DNA of 64,000 nt from a virus. The stretch is taken from IMG/VR virus record IMGVR_UViG_3300050821_003315; one strand, given 5' to 3'. This document shows, in pieces, positions 49,504 to 59,205 of this stretch (its first letter is position 1; each line of letters begins with the position of its first letter). The notes beneath the pieces are model-generated. The model was given only the letters and a program-made list of their open reading frames with translations, was not told the DNA's origin and did no database searches. The translations under genes were made by a program, and so were the position numbers.

Positions 49504-49931
49504 AAATCTATCTAGCCAATAAGATGGCAGGGCTTCCGGAGTTTAACTTCCCGTGGTTCGACGCTGCGGCAACTTCGTTGCGCAGCATTCCTTTGGTTAC
49601 GGAAGTATTCAATCCGGCTGAAGAGGACCGTAAGTACGGTTTCGACGCGAAGGGTCTGGCAGGTAACGAGGATGAGGCTATAGCGCGCGGATTCGACCGT
49701 AGGCGCACTCTAGGACTGGACTGGGCCTGGATTGCGGCTAACAGTGATGGGTGCGCTGTAGGTCCCGATTGGCACCGCTCAATGGGTACTAAGTCTGAGA
49801 TAGCGTGCCATCAAGCGCTCGGACTTCCTGTGTGGCTATTCACGGAATTCATCCAAAACTGGGATACCTCTAACCTTTATGAGCTAGTTATTCCGGAGCT
49901 AATTACTCTGGGTAGTACACTGGTTACATGA
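49500..49931 (+). CDS. DUF4406 / nucleoside 2-deoxyribosyltransferase-like protein
   Basis: KIYLANKMAGLPEFNFPWF...VFNPAE...WHRSMGTKSE. Confidence 0.82.
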   Translation: MKIYLANKMAGLPEFNFPWFDAAATSLRSIPLVTEVFNPAEEDRKYGFDAKGLAGNEDEAIARGFDRRRTLGLDWAWIAANSDGCAVGPDWHRSMGTKSEIACHQALGLPVWLFTEFIQNWDTSNLYELVIPELITLGSTLVT

Positions 49932-50494
49932 TTATTCCCGGACTAGCTCTAGCAGCAAGCATGTTTAATCCGACAGGCTGGGAGGGTTACTCCTGGCCTG
50001 TCAGCACATCCAAGGTTTCAGCCCAGTTCACGATACCCACTGTGCGGCCCCCAAACGGCGCTGTAGCGTTCTGGGCGGGTCTTGGCAAGGGGAACCCAGG
50101 CATCCAGCAGGACGGCGTTGAGTGTGCCGAACTGAACGGTTTCGGCGGGTGCAGTCCGTGGTATGAGATGTGGCCAGCCGCAGCTCAGGCACTTCCGGGC
50201 ACCGTAAAGGCCGGCGACCACATGAAGTTCTCTGTAGCGCACACAGGTGACGATTACGTCCTGCAAGTGTTTGACCTTACACGGCACTGGACTGACACCG
50301 TACACACGGAATACGGTTCACACGAGAACAGCGGAGAAGCCATTGCTGAGGCGTTTGGGCAACCTCTACCGGGCTTCACGGCAGCATCCTTCACCCACAC
50401 ATCCGGGGTGCTCCAGCAGCTTTATAAGTTCCCGTTCTCCGGAACGTCCATAATCAAGGACTCGTCCACGTCGTTTACAGTTCACAAGCTTTAA
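49928..50494 (+). CDS. Secreted G1-family glutamic peptidase (eqolisin-like)
   Basis: Hydrophobic N-terminus; WEGY; VSAQFTIP; FWAGLG; IQQDG (catalytic Q); WYEMWP; SGEAIAE (catalytic E). Confidence 0.8.
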   Translation: MIIPGLALAASMFNPTGWEGYSWPVSTSKVSAQFTIPTVRPPNGAVAFWAGLGKGNPGIQQDGVECAELNGFGGCSPWYEMWPAAAQALPGTVKAGDHMKFSVAHTGDDYVLQVFDLTRHWTDTVHTEYGSHENSGEAIAEAFGQPLPGFTAASFTHTSGVLQQLYKFPFSGTSIIKDSSTSFTVHKL

Positions 50495-50495
50495 A

Positions 50496-50576
50496 TGGAC
50501 TAGCAGGGAATCGAACCCTGGTGCTACTAGCTTCCGACGTTGCGGCTTTATCTAGCAGACGAGACCAACCTAGCCC
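50496..50576 (-). ncRNA. 81-nt tmRNA tRNA-like-domain (TLD)-only RNA with G3.U70 alanine identity
   Basis: GGGCTAG / CTAGTCC-A acceptor; stemless D loop GTTGGTCTCGT; helix CTGCTAG/CTAGTAG; 3-nt connector CAC; T arm CAGGG TTCGATT CCCTG. Confidence 0.65.
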
Positions 50577-50611
50577 AAGTTCAAGTGTAACTCAATCAGT
50601 GATAAGCGAAG

Positions 50612-50680
50612 TGCCCTCGCCCGGAGTCGAACCGGGTAGCCAAGCTTAGGAGGCTCGGCGCTGCGTCCGTCAGCGGGGGC
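50612..50680 (-). tRNA. tRNA-Arg(CCT), compact 69-nt form
   Basis: CCGAGC CTCCTAA GCTTGG; T loop TTCGACT. Confidence 0.75.
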
Positions 50681-50684
50681 AAAG

Positions 50685-50757
50685 AGGGGCATGTGGGAGT
50701 CGAACCCACGACTTCCGGGTTGCAGCCGGAATCCCGAAAACCATCGAGACATGCCCC
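50685..50757 (-). tRNA. tRNA-Cys(GCA)
   Basis: TCCGG CTGCAAC CCGGA; U73. Confidence 0.88.
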
Positions 50758-50758
50758 A

Positions 50759-50830
50759 TGGTGCTTCTATCCGGAGTCGAACCGGACAACCAACCTTCGG
50801 AGGGTCGGCGGAAGTTCCCCTACTAGAAGC
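50759..50830 (-). tRNA. tRNA-Arg(CCG), compact form, CCA encoded
   Basis: CCGACC CTCCGAA GGTTGG. Confidence 0.75.
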
Positions 50831-50834
50831 ACAG

Positions 50835-50910
50835 TGACCCCACAGGGATTTGAACCCTGAAAACTCCTGCTTGAAAGGCAGGTGACTTTAACCAATTTGT
50901 CCATGGGGCC
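50835..50910 (-). tRNA. tRNA-Glu(TTC)
   Basis: CCTGC CTTTCAA GCAGG. Confidence 0.92.
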
Positions 50911-50941
50911 TTGCAACTACAGTGTACACGGTTGCGCGCAG

Positions 50942-51015
50942 TGACCCTACAGGGACTTGAACCCTGAAACTCCACCTTGAGAGGGTGGCGACTTTACCTA
51001 TTTGTCTATAGGGCC
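50942..51015 (-). tRNA. tRNA-Glu(CTC)
   Basis: CCACC CTCTCAA GGTGG. Confidence 0.93.
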
Positions 51016-51018
51016 ATA

Positions 51019-51330
51019 CTAAATTTCTGCACCTGATTCAGGATAAGGACCTACTAGGTCATTTGAATCAAGAACAGGGTCTAGGAACTTGGCTATGATA
51101 GCTAGCCTGCTCCAGGTTATGAGGAATTTTCGTCCCGCGTAGTCTCCGTCAGAAACATTAATGCTGAGTCCTGACGGAAGTATCGCGCAATCTTCTTTCT
51201 TGAAGGACATATTATCTAGTTCGCGGGAGTGAGTTACAATTCGGATGCGAGTTACATCCTCATCGTTCCACCACGGAGGGTACAAGTAGGCGTTAGCCAA
51301 ATCGTTTTCCCTAATTACTCCGCGAGACAT
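51019..51330 (-). CDS. Hypothetical protein inside tRNA array
   Basis: RBS GGAGG and TAAGCT -10 upstream. Confidence 0.6.
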   Translation of the reverse strand: MSRGVIRENDLANAYLYPPWWNDEDVTRIRIVTHSRELDNMSFKKEDCAILPSGLSINVSDGDYAGRKFLITWSRLAIIAKFLDPVLDSNDLVGPYPESGAEI

Positions 51331-51365
51331 AAGCTGCTACCTCCAAGGTTTCAGCTTATCACGTT

Positions 51366-51437
51366 TGGCGCGGCACCAGGGAGTCTAACCCTGCCTAGGA
51401 ATTTAGAAGATTCCCGCCCGAATACGTCGGCTGCCGC
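51366..51437 (-). tRNA. tRNA-Arg(TCT), compact form with TTAGACT T loop, CCA encoded
   Basis: GGGAAT CTTCTAA ATTCCT; D arm CCGA CGTAT TCGG. Confidence 0.7.
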
Positions 51438-51441
51438 GTAG

Positions 51442-51514
51442 TGCCTCCCCAGAGACTCGAACTCTGATACACGGGGTAAAAGCCCGTTGTCCTACGCTAT
51501 TGAACGAAGGAGGC
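51442..51514 (-). tRNA. tRNA-Lys(TTT)
   Basis: ACGGG CTTTTAC CCCGT. Confidence 0.9.
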
Positions 51515-51518
51515 AAAG

Positions 51519-51590
51519 TAGGGTCGCAGGGAATTGAACCCTGTTAGCATGTGTATAAGACATGCGTCCTAACCAGTGAACGACGACCCC
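51519..51590 (-). tRNA. tRNA-Ile(TAT)
   Basis: CATGT CTTATAC ACATG. Confidence 0.88.
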
Positions 51591-51591
51591 G

Positions 51592-51665
51592 TAGCTCACC
51601 TGGGAATTGAACCCAGCACGTCTATCTTATCAGGATAGTTCCACCCACCAGGTGGACTGTGAGCC
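51592..51665 (-). tRNA. tRNA-Ile(GAT)
   Basis: CTATC CTGATAA GATAG; extended D stem. Confidence 0.85.
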
Positions 51666-51669
51666 AAAG

Positions 51670-51750
51670 CGGAAGATTGAGGTGCCGACCCCCGCACCTT
51701 TCGGTGCATCCGGGTTCAAACCGGATTGCCAGGCCGCTGGCTAACCTTCC
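51670..51750 (-). tRNA. tRNA-Ser(TGA), atypical T arm
   Basis: TCCGG TTTGAAC CCGGA; variable arm GCACC GAAA GGTGC; T loop GTCGGCA. Confidence 0.7.
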
Positions 51751-51823
51751 ACGATGTCGCTTTTGTTCAGCCAAGCTGACGGCACGGCAGGGTGCCCTGA
51801 ACGCGATAGTGACCATCGCAGCG

Positions 51824-51907
51824 CGGAAGACAGAGTACTCGAAACCCAGTCCTGACGGACCCATCTGCTTTCGAAACAGCGCCCGCAGCCTTACGGGTTT
51901 ATCTTCC
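51824..51907 (-). tRNA. tRNA-Ser(CGA)
   Basis: CTGT TTCGAAA GCAG; long variable arm; G73. Confidence 0.8.
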
Positions 51908-51911
51908 AACG

Positions 51912-51996
51912 CGGAGAGCGGAGAACTCGAATCCCAGCGCCTTACGACGCCCAGCTCGTTTCCAGCGAGTGCCCAGCCCTGCCAGGTTCACTCTCC
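51912..51996 (-). tRNA. tRNA-Ser(GGA)
   Basis: CTCG CTGGAAA CGAG; long variable arm; G73. Confidence 0.83.
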
Positions 51997-52007
51997 ATGT
52001 TACTGCG

Positions 52008-52082
52008 TAGCCGCCGTGGGACTCGAACCCACAACCTCAGGCACCTAAAGCCTGCGCCTCTGCCAAATTGGGCTAGGCGGCC
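52008..52082 (-). tRNA. tRNA-Leu(TAG), short variable loop
   Basis: CAGGC TTTAGGT GCCTG. Confidence 0.9.
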
Positions 52083-52152
52083 ATACTGCCCCGTTAATCC
52101 TCATCATACAGGCCCTGTACACAGGCTGAGGTGCGTGGAGGCTTACGCAGTG

Positions 52153-52237
52153 CGGAAGATTGAGAACTCGAATCCCAGTGCATCTCTACACCGCACTCGT
52201 TAGCAGCGAGGCCCAGAACCTATCTGGTTAATCTTCC
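52153..52237 (-). tRNA. tRNA-Ser(GCT)
   Basis: CTCG CTGCTAA CGAG; long variable arm. Confidence 0.83.
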
Positions 52238-52246
52238 AAGGGGGTT

Positions 52247-52319
52247 TCTGTGACGGACTTAAAGGCTTTATCCTACAGCGTACTCGCTGCCCGGACGCCT
52301 AAACCGGGACTTCCACAGA
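52247..52319 (-). ncRNA. Circularly permuted tRNA-like RNA (T arm - closed acceptor - D arm)
   Basis: TCTGTG GAAGT CCCGG TTTAGGCGT CCGGG CAGCG AGTA CGCTG TA GGAT AAAGCCTTTAA GTCC GT CACAGA. Confidence 0.55.
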
Positions 52320-52322
52320 CCG

Positions 52323-52397
52323 TGCCGCTCCGGGGATTCGAACCCCGAACATCTGGCTTCTGAGGCCAGCGCCTCTACCTAATTGGACTAGAGCGGC
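52323..52397 (-). tRNA. tRNA-Leu(CAG), short variable loop
   Basis: CTGGC CTCAGAA GCCAG. Confidence 0.92.
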
Positions 52398-52416
52398 ATA
52401 AGCTCTTTCGAGCCAG

Positions 52417-52488
52417 AGTGGATGACGGGATTCGAACCCGCAACCATCACCTTGGCAAGGTGATACGCTACCGTTGCGCCACATCCAC
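52417..52488 (-). tRNA. tRNA-Gly(GCC)
   Basis: TCACC TTGCCAA GGTGA. Confidence 0.95.
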
Positions 52489-52506
52489 ATAGTGCTTTTC
52501 GCACAG

Positions 52507-52579
52507 AGCCTTGACCGAGATTCGAACTCGGGACCTCATCCGTACCAAGGATGTGCTCTTCCGCTGGAGCTATCAAGGC
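52507..52579 (-). tRNA. tRNA-Thr(GGT)
   Basis: CATCC TTGGTAC GGATG. Confidence 0.94.
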
Positions 52580-52583
52580 AAAG

Positions 52584-52654
52584 CTGCGGTACAAGGATTC
52601 GAACCTCGATAGACGGGACCAAAACCCGTCGTCCTGCCGTTAGACGATACCGCA
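52584..52654 (-). tRNA. tRNA-Gln(TTG)
   Basis: ACGGG TTTTGGT CCCGT; U1-A72. Confidence 0.93.
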
Positions 52655-52667
52655 TTAACGTACTACG

Positions 52668-52739
52668 AGCCTCGTGCAGGATTTGAACCCGCGACCTTCG
52701 CCTTACAAGGGCACTGCTCTTCCACTGAGCTAACGAGGC
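52668..52739 (-). tRNA. tRNA-Thr(TGT)
   Basis: GCC CTTGTAA GGC. Confidence 0.9.
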
Positions 52740-52751
52740 ATTGTTACTGCG

Positions 52752-52836
52752 TGCGCGAAGAGGGACTTGAACCCTCACGACTCTTCCGAGTCACTGGACT
52801 CTCATTCCAGCGTGTCTGCCATTTCACCATCCGCGC
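52752..52836 (-). tRNA. tRNA-Leu(GAG), long variable arm
   Basis: CTGGA ATGAGAG TCCAG. Confidence 0.92.
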
Positions 52837-52855
52837 ATAGTTCCTTTCGGAACAG

Positions 52856-52923
52856 AGCCTCATCGGAGAATTGAACTCCGCGACATCCCCGTACGAAGGG
52901 GCTGTGTACCCAGTACATGAGGC
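52856..52923 (-). tRNA. tRNA-Thr(CGT), compact 68-nt form
   Basis: CCCC TTCGTAC GGGG; D arm GTAC TGG GTAC directly after the acceptor strand. Confidence 0.7.
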
Positions 52924-52927
52924 AAAG

Positions 52928-52998
52928 CTCCGGGGCAGAGATTCGAACTCCAATTAATAGGTTCAGAGCCTATCGTCCTGCCGTTAGACGACCCCGGA
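52928..52998 (-). tRNA. tRNA-Gln(CTG)
   Basis: ATAGG CTCTGAA CCTAT. Confidence 0.93.
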
Positions 52999-53015
52999 AT
53001 AGCGCTTTCGCGCAG

Positions 53016-53093
53016 TGCCGAATGAGGGAATCGAACCCCCGGTGCCAAAGGCAACAGTTTTACAGACTGCTTCCACTCCACGTGGTATCCGGC
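53016..53093 (-). tRNA. tRNA-Tyr(GTA), shortened D arm
   Basis: GCAGT CTGTAAA ACTGT; variable arm GCC TTT GGC. Confidence 0.82.
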
Positions 53094-53094
53094 A

Positions 53095-53170
53095 TGGTGT
53101 GACCGCTGGGAATTGAACCCAGATGGCTAGTTTCACAAACTAGCGTGTTAACCATTACACCACGGTCACC
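53095..53170 (-). tRNA. tRNA-His(GTG), CCA encoded
   Basis: CTAGT TTGTGAA ACTAG. Confidence 0.92.
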
Positions 53171-53171
53171 G

Positions 53172-53243
53172 TAGGCGATGAGGGATTCGAACCCCCGACT
53201 TTCTCTTTGTAAGAGAGATGCTCTTCCACTGAACTAATCGCCC
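53172..53243 (-). tRNA. tRNA-Val(TAC)
   Basis: TCTCT CTTACAA AGAGA. Confidence 0.95.
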
Positions 53244-53262
53244 ATAGCGCATTTCTGCGCAG

Positions 53263-53336
53263 TGCACTAGGAGGGATTCGAACCCCCAAGTCTCTTGATT
53301 CGTAGTCAAGTGCATTATCCGTTTTGCTACTAGTGC
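53263..53336 (-). tRNA. tRNA-Arg(ACG), canonical
   Basis: CTTGA CTACGAA TCAAG. Confidence 0.93.
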
Positions 53337-53337
53337 G

Positions 53338-53412
53338 CGACCCTAACGGGATTTGAACCCGTAACCTCCGCCGTGACAGGGCGGTGCTCTGACCAAGTTG
53401 AGCTATAGAGCC
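53338..53412 (-). tRNA. tRNA-Asp(GTC)
   Basis: CCGCC CTGTCAC GGCGG. Confidence 0.96.
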
Positions 53413-53431
53413 ATATCCTCTTGCGAGGAAG

Positions 53432-53503
53432 CTCCTGTGATAGGATTCGAACCTATAACCAAGCGGTTAACAGCCGCCTACTCTGCCGTTGAGCTACACA
53501 GGA
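53432..53503 (-). tRNA. tRNA-Asn(GTT)
   Basis: GGCGG CTGTTAA CCGCT. Confidence 0.95.
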
Positions 53504-53540
53504 TTAGCGCTTTCGCGCGGGTACACCTTAAGTATACCAG

Positions 53541-53611
53541 TACCTAGGGAGGGAATCGAACCCTCGTGTCTGGCTTATGAGACCAGTGTTCTTCCATTGA
53601 ACTACCCAGGC
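53541..53611 (-). tRNA. tRNA-Met(CAT), elongator (Ile2 not excluded)
   Basis: CTGGT CTCATAA GCCAG. Confidence 0.88.
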
Positions 53612-53614
53612 AAG

Positions 53615-53691
53615 TGGGGGCGCGTCCCGGATTTGAACCGGGGTTCTCCAGATTATGGGCCTGGCGAGATACCGAACTTCTCCAACGCGCA
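53615..53691 (-). tRNA. Initiator-like tRNA(CAT), atypical
   Basis: U1xC72 mismatch; fMet-like D arm GGAGAAGTTCGGTATCTCG; CCAGG CCCATAA TCTGG. Confidence 0.75.
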
Positions 53692-53692
53692 G

Positions 53693-53767
53693 TGCCCGAC
53701 CGGGGACTCGAACCCCGAACATCCGGTGTTTGAAACCGGCGACTCTACCTAATTGGCCTAGTCGGGC
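53693..53767 (-). tRNA. tRNA-Leu(CAA), short variable loop
   Basis: CCGGT TTCAAAC ACCGG. Confidence 0.92.
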
Positions 53768-53774
53768 AAACCTT

Positions 53775-53975
53775 CTAAAAGTGTCCCACAATCCTCCAGA
53801 TAGTCTGACTGTGGTAACGCTCGCAACGCAAGAACCAGTAACTGTGATACACAGCCCTTGTACCGAGTCGCGAACAGGAAGTGTTCGGAGCCGGGTGAGA
53901 CTGCGATGCTAGGGCTGAACCGCTGCCCAGTGCTATCGCTGCAATCGTGAACAAGGCTACAAGTAGTTTCTTCAT
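53775..53975 (-). CDS. Small secreted protein inside tRNA array
   Basis: MKKLLVALFTIAAIALGSGSALA signal peptide; two Cys; TAAACT -10 box 6 nt upstream (leaderless). Confidence 0.75.
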   Translation of the reverse strand: MKKLLVALFTIAAIALGSGSALASQSHPAPNTSCSRLGTRAVYHSYWFLRCERYHSQTIWRIVGHF

Positions 53976-53991
53976 GATTACAGTTTAGCAG

Positions 53992-54063
53992 TACCCCGCC
54001 AGGGATTCGAACCCTGACAACGCTGGGTAAGAGCCAGCTGCACTACCGTTATGCTAACGGGGC
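53992..54063 (-). tRNA. tRNA-Lys(CTT)
   Basis: GCTGG CTCTTAC CCAGC. Confidence 0.94.
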
Positions 54064-54067
54064 AAAG

Positions 54068-54139
54068 AGCGAGTGACGGGATTCGAACCCGCAGTGCCAC
54101 TTTGGAAGAGTGGGAGTTTAACCATTAACCAACACTCGC
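54068..54139 (-). tRNA. tRNA-Gly(TCC)
   Basis: CCACT CTTCCAA AGTGG. Confidence 0.9.
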
Positions 54140-54156
54140 ATAGCGCTTTCGCGCAG

Positions 54157-54228
54157 TGGCTCCCAGAAGACTTGAACTTCTTTATCTTGGGCTTCAACCA
54201 AGTGCTCTACCATATGAGCTAGAGAGCC
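54157..54228 (-). tRNA. tRNA-Phe(GAA)
   Basis: CTTGG TTGAAGC CCAAG. Confidence 0.9.
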
Positions 54229-54247
54229 ATAACCCTTTATAGGGCAG

Positions 54248-54318
54248 TCGGGATGCGGAGAATCGAACTCCGTCTGCATGCTCCCAAAGCATGCGCGCTA
54301 CCAGTACGCTACACCCCG
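54248..54318 (-). tRNA. tRNA-Pro(TGG)
   Basis: CATGC TTTGGGA GCATG. Confidence 0.93.
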
Positions 54319-54380
54319 TGGAGCCCGGTTTATTTTGGTTGCTCCGGAAATCACGGCAACTCGTTCATCATTGAACTACG

Positions 54381-54455
54381 TCAGAGTGGTGGGATTCGAA
54401 CCCACGACCTCCTGCATCCCGAGCAGGCACGCTAACCAAGCTGCGCTACACCCTG
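54381..54455 (-). tRNA. tRNA-Pro(GGG)
   Basis: CCTGC TCGGGAT GCAGG (C33). Confidence 0.9.
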
Positions 54456-54484
54456 ATACAGCCACCGCTTGCAATCAGTGGCCT

Positions 54485-54577
54485 AAGTTACATTCGCCGC
54501 TCTGCCATTAAGCTACAGTGCCGTGGGAGCTACCCTTGCACTGACCGGAGTCGAACCGGCACCTGTTTCTGTAACTT
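54485..54577 (-). ncRNA. YrlA-type bacterial Y RNA (permuted tRNA mimic)
   Basis: AAGTTACA...T arm GCCGG TTCGACT CCGGT - CAGTGC/GCACTG closed acceptor - TA - D arm GCTT AATGGCA GAGC - GGCGAATG motif - TGTAACTT closing stem. Confidence 0.75.
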
Positions 54578-54579
54578 TG

Positions 54580-54654
54580 TCTGGACGGGAGGATTTGAAC
54601 CTCCGACCTCCGCAATCCGAATGCGGCACGCTGACCAAGCTGCGCTACGCCCAG
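54580..54654 (-). tRNA. tRNA-Pro(CGG)
   Basis: CCGCA TTCGGAT TGCGG. Confidence 0.93.
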
Positions 54655-54740
54655 TTAAAGCACGGTGTGCTATGCTCCCTACACCATCCTGCCCCTGTTG
54701 GGACGGGTGCCGATTCCAACGGCGACCTCCGTGAACTAAC
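54655..54740 (-). ncRNA. Circularly permuted tRNA-like RNA
   Basis: CACGG AGGTC GCCG TTGGAAT CGGC A CCCGTCCC AACA GGGGCAGG A TG GTGT AGGGAGCATA GCAC A CCGTG. Confidence 0.65.
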
Positions 54741-54836
54741 GCCGGGTATGCTCCCTCCATACAACACCGGGCAACTCCACGCACTCTCATGCGCTTCACC
54801 GTCACCCAGGCAGGATTCGAACCTGCGCCTCCCAGC
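54741..54836 (-). ncRNA. Circularly permuted tRNA-like RNA with extended acceptor hairpin
   Basis: GCTGG GAGGC GCAGG TTCGAAT CCTGC CTGGGTGAC...GCGCAT GAGA GTGCGT...GTTGCCCGG TGTT GTATG GAGGGAG CATAC CCGGC. Confidence 0.65.
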
Positions 54837-54839
54837 AAG

Positions 54840-54914
54840 TGGACCATGTCGGATTCGAACCGACAACCTTCACCGTGCAAAGGTGTTGCTCTACCAGATT
54901 GGAGCTAATGGCCC
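54840..54914 (-). tRNA. tRNA-Ala(TGC)
   Basis: CACC TTTGCAC GGTG; G3.U70. Confidence 0.94.
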
Positions 54915-54995
54915 ATGGTGACCTGAACAAGGAAATGCGTCTAGCTATTCCCGGAAGCCGGGATTCTAGGCACACGCCCCTATTCAGGTCATCTT

Positions 54996-55047
54996 GCTTA
55001 TCACTGTTGAGTTATCAAATAACAGGACACTCGCCGTAGCGAAGTCC
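54996..55047 (-). promoter_or_regulatory. rrn-type boxB hairpin + boxA antitermination element
   Basis: GGAC TTCGC TACG GCGA GT GTCC hairpin then TGTTATTTGATAACTCAACAGTG, resembling the actinobacterial rrn leader boxA. Confidence 0.65.
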
Positions 55048-55050
55048 GTG

Positions 55051-55121
55051 CAGGCCACCAGAGAGTCGAACTCTGTCTAAGAGGGTTGGAGCCTCGTGTG
55101 CTTCCGGTACACCAGTGACCT
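55051..55121 (-). tRNA. tRNA-Trp(CCA)
   Basis: GAGG CTCCAAC CCTC; G73. Confidence 0.9.
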
Positions 55122-58020: not shown

Positions 58021-59205
58021 CTAGCCCTTATAATTAAAAACCTGCTGGATTTCAGTAACTACTTCGCACAAGTCAGCTTGGTCGGCCATGACACCGTGGA
58101 TGTCCTTGTACGCCAAGGGGGCCTCGTCTATGAGCGCATCAACGCGGTCAGCGTTCCAAGTTATTCCCGCGCGAGCCATGTGAGCGACAAACGAATCGCG
58201 GTCGAGTTCACGCTTTGCCCTGGAACGACTCATCTTGCGGCCGGCTCCGTGAGAGCTGCTGTTGAAAGACTCCGCGCTGCCCAGGCCACGAGTGATGAAC
58301 GTGCTCGTACCCATAGAGCCAGGGACTACACCTAGGTCACCTACATCAGCCTTAATGGCTCCCTTACGGGTAATCCACAACTCCTTGTCGCCATGAGTCT
58401 CGCGTGCGGTGTAGTTGTGGTGGCAGTTGATGACTTCAACGATACCATCATCAATAGTTTCCCACACCTCAGGCATGCCTACAACCTCGAACAAGGACTT
58501 CAGCAAGGCATCGTTCATCGCCTGACGGTTACCGTAAGCGTAATTCTGTGCCCACACAAGGTCGCGCATGTACTCCTGGAACTCAGGTGTACCTTCAAGG
58601 AAGTAAGCCAGGTCAGGGTCTTCGAGGCTAACTGAAAGTTGCTTCATCAGCCCCTTTGCCTTTTTAATGTGGCCACTGGCTAGCTGGTTGCCGATGCCAC
58701 GACTTCCCGAGTGAAGTACCGTCCACACGAATCCGTTAGGGTCGAGTCCCACCTCAACGAAGTGGTTTCCGGAACCTAGCGACCCGAACTGAGAGCACAG
58801 CGTGTGCTCTTGAGCTGATGTTAGGTCCAGCGACTCCCACTCAGGAATCTTGCTAAGGTCAATGTTATCGTTAGCGTGCCCCGCGCCTACACCTGCCGGG
58901 ATTCGCTGCTCAATCAGCGACATCAGCGGGCTAAGGTCATCGGGCAAGTCGTGTGCCGTGTAGCCTGTTTCGGTTGCAATCATGCCACAGCCGATGTCCA
59001 CCCCTACCGCAGCAGGGATGATTGCCCCGTTGGTCGGGATTACCGAGCCTACGGTAGCGCCCATACCGATGTGAGCATCGGGCATCAGGGCAACATGGCC
59101 CTCCACGAACGGCAAACGGGACGCGCGAGCAGCCTGCTCAAGCGTGTCACCTTCGATGTCTGTTGCCCAGTAGAGCAACCGGTTCTTCCCGTACTGCTGC
59201 GGCAT
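58021..59205 (-). CDS. rtcB: RtcB RNA ligase
   Basis: MPDAHIG; VGVDIGCGM; GSGNHFVE; LHSGSRG; CHHNY; RKGA; HGAGR; DEAPLAYK. Confidence 0.97.
   Translation of the reverse strand: MPQQYGKNRLLYWATDIEGDTLEQAARASRLPFVEGHVALMPDAHIGMGATVGSVIPTNGAIIPAAVGVDIGCGMIATETGYTAHDLPDDLSPLMSLIEQRIPAGVGAGHANDNIDLSKIPEWESLDLTSAQEHTLCSQFGSLGSGNHFVEVGLDPNGFVWTVLHSGSRGIGNQLASGHIKKAKGLMKQLSVSLEDPDLAYFLEGTPEFQEYMRDLVWAQNYAYGNRQAMNDALLKSLFEVVGMPEVWETIDDGIVEVINCHHNYTARETHGDKELWITRKGAIKADVGDLGVVPGSMGTSTFITRGLGSAESFNSSSHGAGRKMSRSRAKRELDRDSFVAHMARAGITWNADRVDALIDEAPLAYKDIHGVMADQADLCEVVTEIQQVFNYKG

Follow-up and report, generated by a model that had tools for sequence, protein, structure and literature searches.

Trans-translation is the main ribosome-rescue pathway of bacteria; several pathogens cannot live without it, and drugs are aimed at it. 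Its RNA, the canonical tmRNA (RF00023), joins a tRNA-like domain (TLD) and the base of helix P2 to a core of about 300 nt with pseudoknots, a resume codon, a tag open reading frame (ORF) and a stop. Reduced forms with these parts missing have been recorded in two settings. The first is a phage: an entry 'Mycobacterium phage DS6A (TLD only)' appears in the database papers on tmRNA (PMC4131195, PMC11915505), and both cite Mao et al. 2009 as having first seen the kind in DS6A. From the same study these papers relate that a molecule reduced to the TLD acts as a strong inhibitor of tmRNA in E. coli, perhaps via titration of SmpB (PMC4131195, PMC11915505), and one of them adds that the inhibition by the TLD-only construct is independent of its chargeability (PMC4131195). 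Two kinds of action, tag-free rescue and service as a decoy for trans-translation, are both discussed for the TLD-only kind (PMC4131195, PMC11915505).

The second setting is organellar: CDS-less tmRNAs occur in the mitochondria of jakobids (Jacob et al. 2004, RF02544) and, at a size of about 65 bp, in the plastids of Mallomonadaceae (PMC11915505). Like the element reported here, these are reduced to the TLD, have no tag reading frame and are presumed partners of SmpB; they differ in being products of reductive evolution in organelles and a separate lineage, and we set them beside the element by description. By these accounts (Mao 2009; Hudson 2014; the 2025 database paper) the kind is already known from DS6A and from the organellar CDS-less tmRNAs. 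An earlier note on the present locus, made from the letters of the DNA, therefore implied too much novelty, since knowledge of the kind goes back to Mao et al. 2009 (cited through PMC4131195 and PMC11915505). Our search of the full-text literature, with subscription journals outside its coverage, found no description of a phage family beyond DS6A: one phage example is named in the searched literature, while sequence data show hundreds.

The element lies in a 163,509-bp IMG/VR virus record (IMGVR_UViG_3300050821_003315), which CheckV rates as 100% complete. What we call the window is the whole stretch of 64,000 nucleotides that was analysed, which corresponds to the initial 63.9 kb of this record read on the opposite strand. 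The host of the phage is probably an actinobacterium, because its large terminase resembles those of Rhodococcus, Arthrobacter and Mycobacterium phages (about 33% identity). The mini-tmRNA is found 34 nt downstream of tRNA-Arg(CCU), the last member of a large tRNA array, on the same strand and at the 3' end of the array; it is the 36th small RNA gene of this tRNA operon. From the other side it is approached by a convergent gene for a Peptidase_A4 protein, whose stop codon is about 1-2 nt from the 3' end of the mini-tmRNA (Table 1); genes of this peptidase family are uncommon in phages. Elsewhere the phage encodes the RNA ligase RtcB and a 117-aa protein with an RF-1 domain (54.5-55.4 bits) and the motif GPGGQ (GPGGQHQN). 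This protein is similar to peptidyl-tRNA hydrolases of the ArfB/ICT1 type. We found neither an SmpB gene nor a CCA-adding enzyme in the phage, no tyrosine or serine integrase in its complete genome, and no second mini-tmRNA copy or full-length tmRNA elsewhere in that genome.

Table 1. Features of the mini-tmRNA, its genomic neighbours and two related copies. Positions refer to the window unless another record is named.
Feature	Position	Strand	Basis or remark
Whole mini-tmRNA gene, 81 nt, tRNA-like domain only	50496..50576	-	RF00023 end to end, family models, fold
Acceptor 5' strand GGGCUAG, RNA positions 1-7	50570..50576	-	Pairs 7/7 with 50497-50503, includes G3.U70
D-loop analogue GUUGGUCUCGUC, RNA positions 8-19, without D stem	50558..50569	-	UCGUC variant of the tmRNA motif GG..UCGAC
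P2 helix 5' strand UGCUAG, RNA positions 20-25, at the site of the tRNA anticodon arm	50552..50557	-	Pairs with 50525-50530
Apical module: A-rich bulge AUAAAG, mini-hairpin CCG-CAACGU-CGG, AAG	50531..50551	-	Fits family motif AAAnCC-hairpin-GGA
P2 helix 3' strand CUAGUA, RNA positions 47-52	50525..50530	-	Fold, R2 alignment
Connector GCAC, RNA positions 53-56, counterpart of bacterial tmRNA GGAC	50521..50524	-	DS6A also GCAC
T arm CAGGG-UUCGAUU-CCCUG, RNA positions 57-73	50504..50520	-	Fold; T-stem pairs covary in the family
Acceptor 3' strand CUAGUCC and discriminator A, then UUU	50496..50503	-	CCA not encoded
Peptidase_A4 gene (G1 glutamic peptidase family)	49928-50494	+	Convergent on the mini-tmRNA
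Array of 35 tRNA genes	50611..55121	-	ARAGORN, Rfam
RtcB RNA ligase gene, upstream of the tRNA array	58021-59205	-	PF01139, 372 bits
RF-1/GGQ-domain protein, 117 aa	G000:C1:103417-103770 = L135:1918-2271, outside the window	-	PF00472
Related-phage mini-tmRNA	L011:6581-6659 in IMGVR_UViG_3300050821_003907	+	Junction of Peptidase_A4 gene and tRNA array
BRock mini-tmRNA	KX925554.1 97143-97220 (L134:3001-3078)	-	Between tRNA-Val and tRNA-Cys, in a tRNA array

The minimum-free-energy fold of the element (-27.6 kcal/mol) reproduces the layout of Table 1 exactly, with a 7-bp acceptor stem, no D stem, a long helix and a T arm; its fold-energy z-score of -1.47 is not significant taken alone. All the parts that the earlier note had read from the letters are found by this fold where it had placed them, on the minus strand at 50496-50576. 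The 7-bp helix capped by a 21-nt loop that it had described holds for the helix and for the size of the cap: with the C19-G53 pair counted in, C19-G25 pairs with C47-G53 over 7 bp, the cap is 21 nt and the connector is then CAC. The cap, however, is not a plain loop, being structured by a conserved A-rich bulge and a 3-bp mini-hairpin.

The alanine identity elements G3.U70 and A73 are present. Where the canonical tmRNA has the D-loop motif GG..UUCGAC together with a GGAC connector, the element has GGUCUCGUC together with GCAC, its D loop differing from GGnUUCGAC at two positions. The element contains no resume codon with an in-frame stop, no tag ORF and no pseudoknots, and ARAGORN finds no tmRNA or tag in it. 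Read from the GCA that is conserved in its family, it is open to the 3' end; the 3' strand of P2 contains its sole stops, UAG UAG, in a frame that lacks a GCN start and is not conserved in the family. Encoded CCA is near-absent among the phage's own tRNA genes, and its absence from the mini-tmRNA is therefore normal.

The Infernal comparison of tmRNA with tRNA models that the earlier note had proposed comes out on the side of tmRNA. When RF00023 is run against the whole phage genome, the element aligns end to end, from model position 1 to 374 in only 84 nt (34.5 bits, E 2e-13), and is the top match in the 163.5-kb phage, the real tRNAs scoring about 15-21 bits on the same model. On the tRNA model RF00005 it reaches 16.2 bits (E 0.12), under the cut-off of 29, as against 30-70 bits for the real tRNAs of the phage. 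Its fold has neither the D stem nor the 7-nt anticodon loop of a tRNA cloverleaf, and at this place ARAGORN makes no tRNA or tmRNA call. Since its RF00023 score is below the gathering score of 47, the element is unreported at the gathering threshold, and standard annotation (ARAGORN, and Rfam at that threshold) misses it. For the window, the practical gain of the analysis is the annotation of an RNA gene that standard tools missed.

Two covariance models made from the phage family described below give higher scores. R1, the model of the first-scan set with the window element included, scores the element at 71.7 bits, mid-range among the 62-93 bits of the members, with tRNAs at 31 bits or less. 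R2, made from 62 second-scan sequences with the window element excluded, aligns it end to end with every helix paired at 63.7 bits (E 8e-17); on this model DS6A scores 53.6, the Streptomyces phage BRock 78.8, the related phage G001 72.2 and the best window tRNA 24.5 bits. As judged by these sequence comparisons, the element is a real RNA gene, a TLD-only tmRNA of the DS6A kind, far beyond chance. The TLD architecture of tmRNA, which the earlier note had recognised in it, is thus upheld: the element has the 'TLD only' layout of DS6A and fits into a covarying phage family.

This family consists of TLD-only phage RNAs of 75-90 nt, and two pattern scans of IMG/VR yielded about 150 distinct members. 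The first scan, with a pattern made of the shared loop and the T loop, gave at least 118 loci, about 100 of which are 77-82-nt RNAs of TLD-only design; the first set comprises 80 distinct sequences, with the window element, DS6A and G001 counted in. The second, independent scan looked for GGTTTCGAC ... GGTTCGATTCC at TLD-only spacing, a pattern that the window element does not match, and gave 119 loci, which add about 67 distinct members to those of the first set. The nearest family relative of the window element is 80% identical to it.

When the first set is aligned by fitting to the model, 93% of the paired cells are complementary, versus 66% after shuffling. The covariation score is 0.635, a value that was never reached in 500 shuffles; shuffled alignments give 0.143 and slid controls lie at 0.08-0.12. 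Two-sided changes are seen among the 80 members in 7/7 P2 pairs, 4/5 T-stem pairs and 4/7 acceptor pairs. No member departs from the acceptor pairs G1-C72 and G2-C71, and 78/80 keep G3.U70; all 80 end in ...CCA, and the discriminator A73 is therefore constant. The apical hairpin is uninformative in this set, where it was fixed by the search pattern. In the second set the covariation is repeated and two-sided changes are also found in two of the three apical-hairpin pairs. Both alignments were pattern-seeded and model-fitted, and because of the seeding by sequence patterns the invariance of the pattern columns is meaningless; despite the seeding and the fitting, the size of the difference from the shuffled and slid controls makes an explanation without structure untenable.

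The D loop and the connector vary together. UCGAC occurs with GGAC in 27 distinct members, UCGAU with AGAC in 7, and UCGUC with GCAC, the combination of the window element, in 6. Because this last combination recurs jointly in 6 distinct members, the departures of the element from the consensus are not decay. To judge from these co-occurrences, changes across the junction of D loop and connector are correlated; in TLD-SmpB crystal structures this is the junction that faces SmpB.

Within the family, 22 of 79 loci have a tRNA within 300 nt, in every such case on the same strand, and about 49 loci are without a nearby tRNA. No conserved in-frame tag ORF was found across the family members. When a far larger collection of bacterial genomes was scanned with the same loop pattern, there were 2 convincing and 1 doubtful cases among the at least 120 matches listed. 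The family is strongly phage-enriched, because 2 convincing bacterial matches stand against about 100 of at least 118 viral ones, the counts from both scans being lower bounds and not frequencies.

A different tandem arrangement came up beside these members. At L176:13719-13985 (IMGVR_UViG_3300010429_000303) there are three tandem units of about 88 nt, 90 nt apart, and similar ones are found at L151 and L177. Each of the L176 units has GGTTTCGAC and GGTTCGATTCC and is without a pairing acceptor stem: these constitute a separate repeated tRNA-like element.

The junction at which the window element sits is also occupied in a relative. G001, a 181-kb IMG/VR contig, has a homologue of the neighbouring Peptidase_A4 gene with 90% protein identity, and right after this gene it carries an 82-nt TLD-only tmRNA that is over the Rfam cut-off, at 61.5 and 52.9 bits. 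Its alignment runs through the acceptor stem, GG-UUCGAC, P2, a deletion of about 302 positions, GGAC and the T arm. The G001 copy is near the family consensus, belongs to a different lineage (acceptor GGGGCCG) and is on the strand opposite to that of the window's copy; between it and tRNA-Arg(CCU) lie extra genes amounting to about 5 kb. The flanking tRNA-Arg and peptidase gene are conserved between the two phages, yet lineage and strand of the mini-tmRNAs differ, and so we take the two to be non-orthologous RNAs at one junction. The difference suggests that the junction is a hot spot at which one copy was replaced or the two were inserted independently. Closer relatives of the locus did not turn up: a megablast of the locus against isolated phages gave no match, an exact 19-mer is absent from IMG/VR, and blastn of the element alone matched only T-arm-sized pieces.

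The DS6A element, which we located at JN698994 28478-28560 (tmRNA Website tmID 11587 / Phage__Mycobacterium.9), is the closest described counterpart. Both RNAs are phage-borne and about 80 nt long, with G3.U70 and A73, a stemless D loop and a P2 helix; they share the apical core AAAnCCGCA..CGG, the GCAC connector and the T loop UUCGAUU, and have neither a tag ORF nor an encoded CCA. RF00023 aligns to both end to end but below its cut-off (43.2 bits for DS6A, 34.5 for the window element). They differ in sequence, with about 55-60% identity, in the D loop (UCGAC in DS6A, UCGUC in the window) and in the apical loop (4 nt in DS6A, 6 nt in the window). The settings also differ: the DS6A copy is standalone in a 60-kb temperate phage, whereas the window copy comes last after an array of 35 tRNAs, and its 163-kb phage has no integrase.

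Further copies are present in cultured Streptomyces phages, namely BRock, LuckySocke, GiJojo and Alone3 (records KX925554, OR725497, PP725410 and OR725492). In GenBank these are unannotated or lie under an overlapping 'hypothetical protein' CDS. They are nearer to the family consensus than the window element, with UUUGAC or UUCGAC and a GGAC connector. The Streptomyces phage Patelgo, on the other hand, has a full-length phage tmRNA with the tag ANSNFALAA, unlike the TLD-only copy of the window.

Compared with canonical tmRNA, the tRNA-like domain and the base of P2 of the window element align position for position and the alanine identity elements are common to both; the whole of the core is absent. 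The apical consensus of the family, AAAGCCGCA, also occurs in E. coli tmRNA before the resume region (GTAAAAAGCCGCAAAAAATAGTC, then GCA) and resembles the A-rich context of resume codons, e.g. AATAGAT, then GCA, in Patelgo; both resemblances may be homology or coincidence. The window element is a new, somewhat diverged member of the TLD-only phage tmRNAs. Particular to it are the UCGUC/GCAC subclass, the 6-nt apical loop, the position at the end of a tRNA operon and a relative with an inverted, non-orthologous copy at the same junction.

We consider it likely that the locus is a functional gene for a tag-less mini-tmRNA of the DS6A type, putatively competing with the host tmRNA. Its anatomy, its homology and the selection on its structure are demonstrated by the comparisons above, while its life cycle and action are predicted. 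It would share the transcript of the tRNA operon, be cut to size by RNase P and 3' nucleases of the host, receive its CCA from the host enzyme, be charged with alanine by the host alanyl-tRNA synthetase (AlaRS) and be bound by the host SmpB. It may then compete with the host tmRNA for SmpB, EF-Tu and stalled ribosomes; non-stop nascent chains would go untagged for degradation, and trans-translation in the infected host would be damped. Competition with the host tmRNA for SmpB and stalled ribosomes is the action we consider likeliest. Charging by AlaRS, and hence delivery by EF-Tu, appears to be under selection in addition to the binding of SmpB, because acceptor pairs 4-7 vary freely around a constant G3.U70 and A73. 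Such strict conservation of alanine identity, though the inhibition in E. coli needs no chargeability, suggests something beyond simple titration of SmpB. The repeated retention by phages of a minimal tmRNA head suggests a natural way to disable or bypass trans-translation, and the unannotated copies in cultured Streptomyces phages make the function directly testable.

An alternative action is productive rescue without tagging, which the earlier note had offered beside a decoy of trans-translation. Here the alanylated mini-tmRNA and SmpB would enter stalled ribosomes and take over the nascent chain, and a GGQ hydrolase would release it without a degron; candidates are ArfB or Pth of the host and the 117-aa phage protein with the RF-1 domain. 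If true, the phage would gain ribosome-recycling capacity in place of an inhibitor. The covariation of acceptor pairs 4-7 around a fixed alanine identity, which points to selection on charging, is consistent with this reading. So is the presence in one phage of a GGQ/RF-1-domain protein, RtcB and 35 tRNAs, a set for the maintenance of translation, and so are the CDS-less mitochondrial tmRNAs, which are found together with SmpB and whose presumed task is to deal with incomplete mRNAs (PMC11915505). However, among 25 other records with a mini-tmRNA the RF-1-domain gene is found in 3 and RtcB in 3, and since each is in only 3/25 other carriers neither is a required partner. DS6A also has RtcB. 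Moreover, the RNA has no template for a restart, release after the transfer is hypothetical, and inhibition is the sole experimental outcome that the database papers, citing Mao et al. 2009, report for the TLD-only kind. On balance we hold productive rescue to be unlikely.

A wider form of the same idea would make the mini-tmRNA more than a sponge for SmpB, namely an alanine-charged, ribosome-active factor whose conserved apical module has a role of its own, acting with the GGQ protein, RtcB and the tRNAs in a phage-run kit for tag-free rescue and RNA repair. This we regard as doubtful; if true, the kit would keep translation running in large phages when host defences cut RNAs.

Much less probable still is an action outside SmpB and trans-translation, with the RNA as a tRNA-like decoy or cofactor, for example a bait for RNases or tRNA-targeting nucleases of the host, an antagonist of defence sensors with SmpB-like domains, or a primer. 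The location in a tRNA array with RtcB upstream would fit such a role, as would the conserved apical hairpin, which is without a known counterpart in TLD-SmpB recognition, and the existence of CoCoNuT defence systems with SmpB-like domains (PMC11090510). All the conserved features, however, are those parts of tmRNA that face SmpB, AlaRS and EF-Tu, and anticodon nucleases would have no anticodon loop to act upon; the RNase decoy proposed in the earlier note found no support.

Scarcely credible, finally, is a decayed tRNA (a pseudo-tRNA-Ala) at the end of the array or an attP fragment of a tmRNA-integrating phage: adjacent tRNAs, the weak RF00005 match of 16.2 bits and the use of tmRNA genes as attB by some phages speak for it, but the family covaries with compensatory changes, the element reaches 63.7 bits on R2 with both halves of the TLD there and pairing 7/7, and the attP version is removed by the lack of any tyrosine or serine integrase among the genes of the complete genome.

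Against all of these, the tag-less mini-tmRNA competing with host tmRNA is the reading we prefer. Two other structural readings of the element were considered and rejected. Weak Rfam matches to permuted and two-piece tmRNAs (tmRNA_permuted 16.6, beta_tmRNA 14.5 bits) pair the acceptor 3' strand with downstream sequence; we discard them because the acceptor stem in its unpermuted form is fully paired (7/7) and what lies downstream is the antisense of the peptidase gene. A hidden tag ORF, GCA UGA after AAAnCC, is present in a minority of the family members and absent from most of them and from the window element.

The tRNA array itself is interrupted by several gaps of 120-420 nt, and five of its ARAGORN tRNAs, all on the minus strand, have no RF00005 match at E <= 1: Arg-CCU 50611-50680, Arg-CCG 50759-50830, Ile-GAU 51591-51665, Ser-UGA 51669-51750 and Thr-CGU 52855-52923. 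These five are possibly non-canonical scaffolds.
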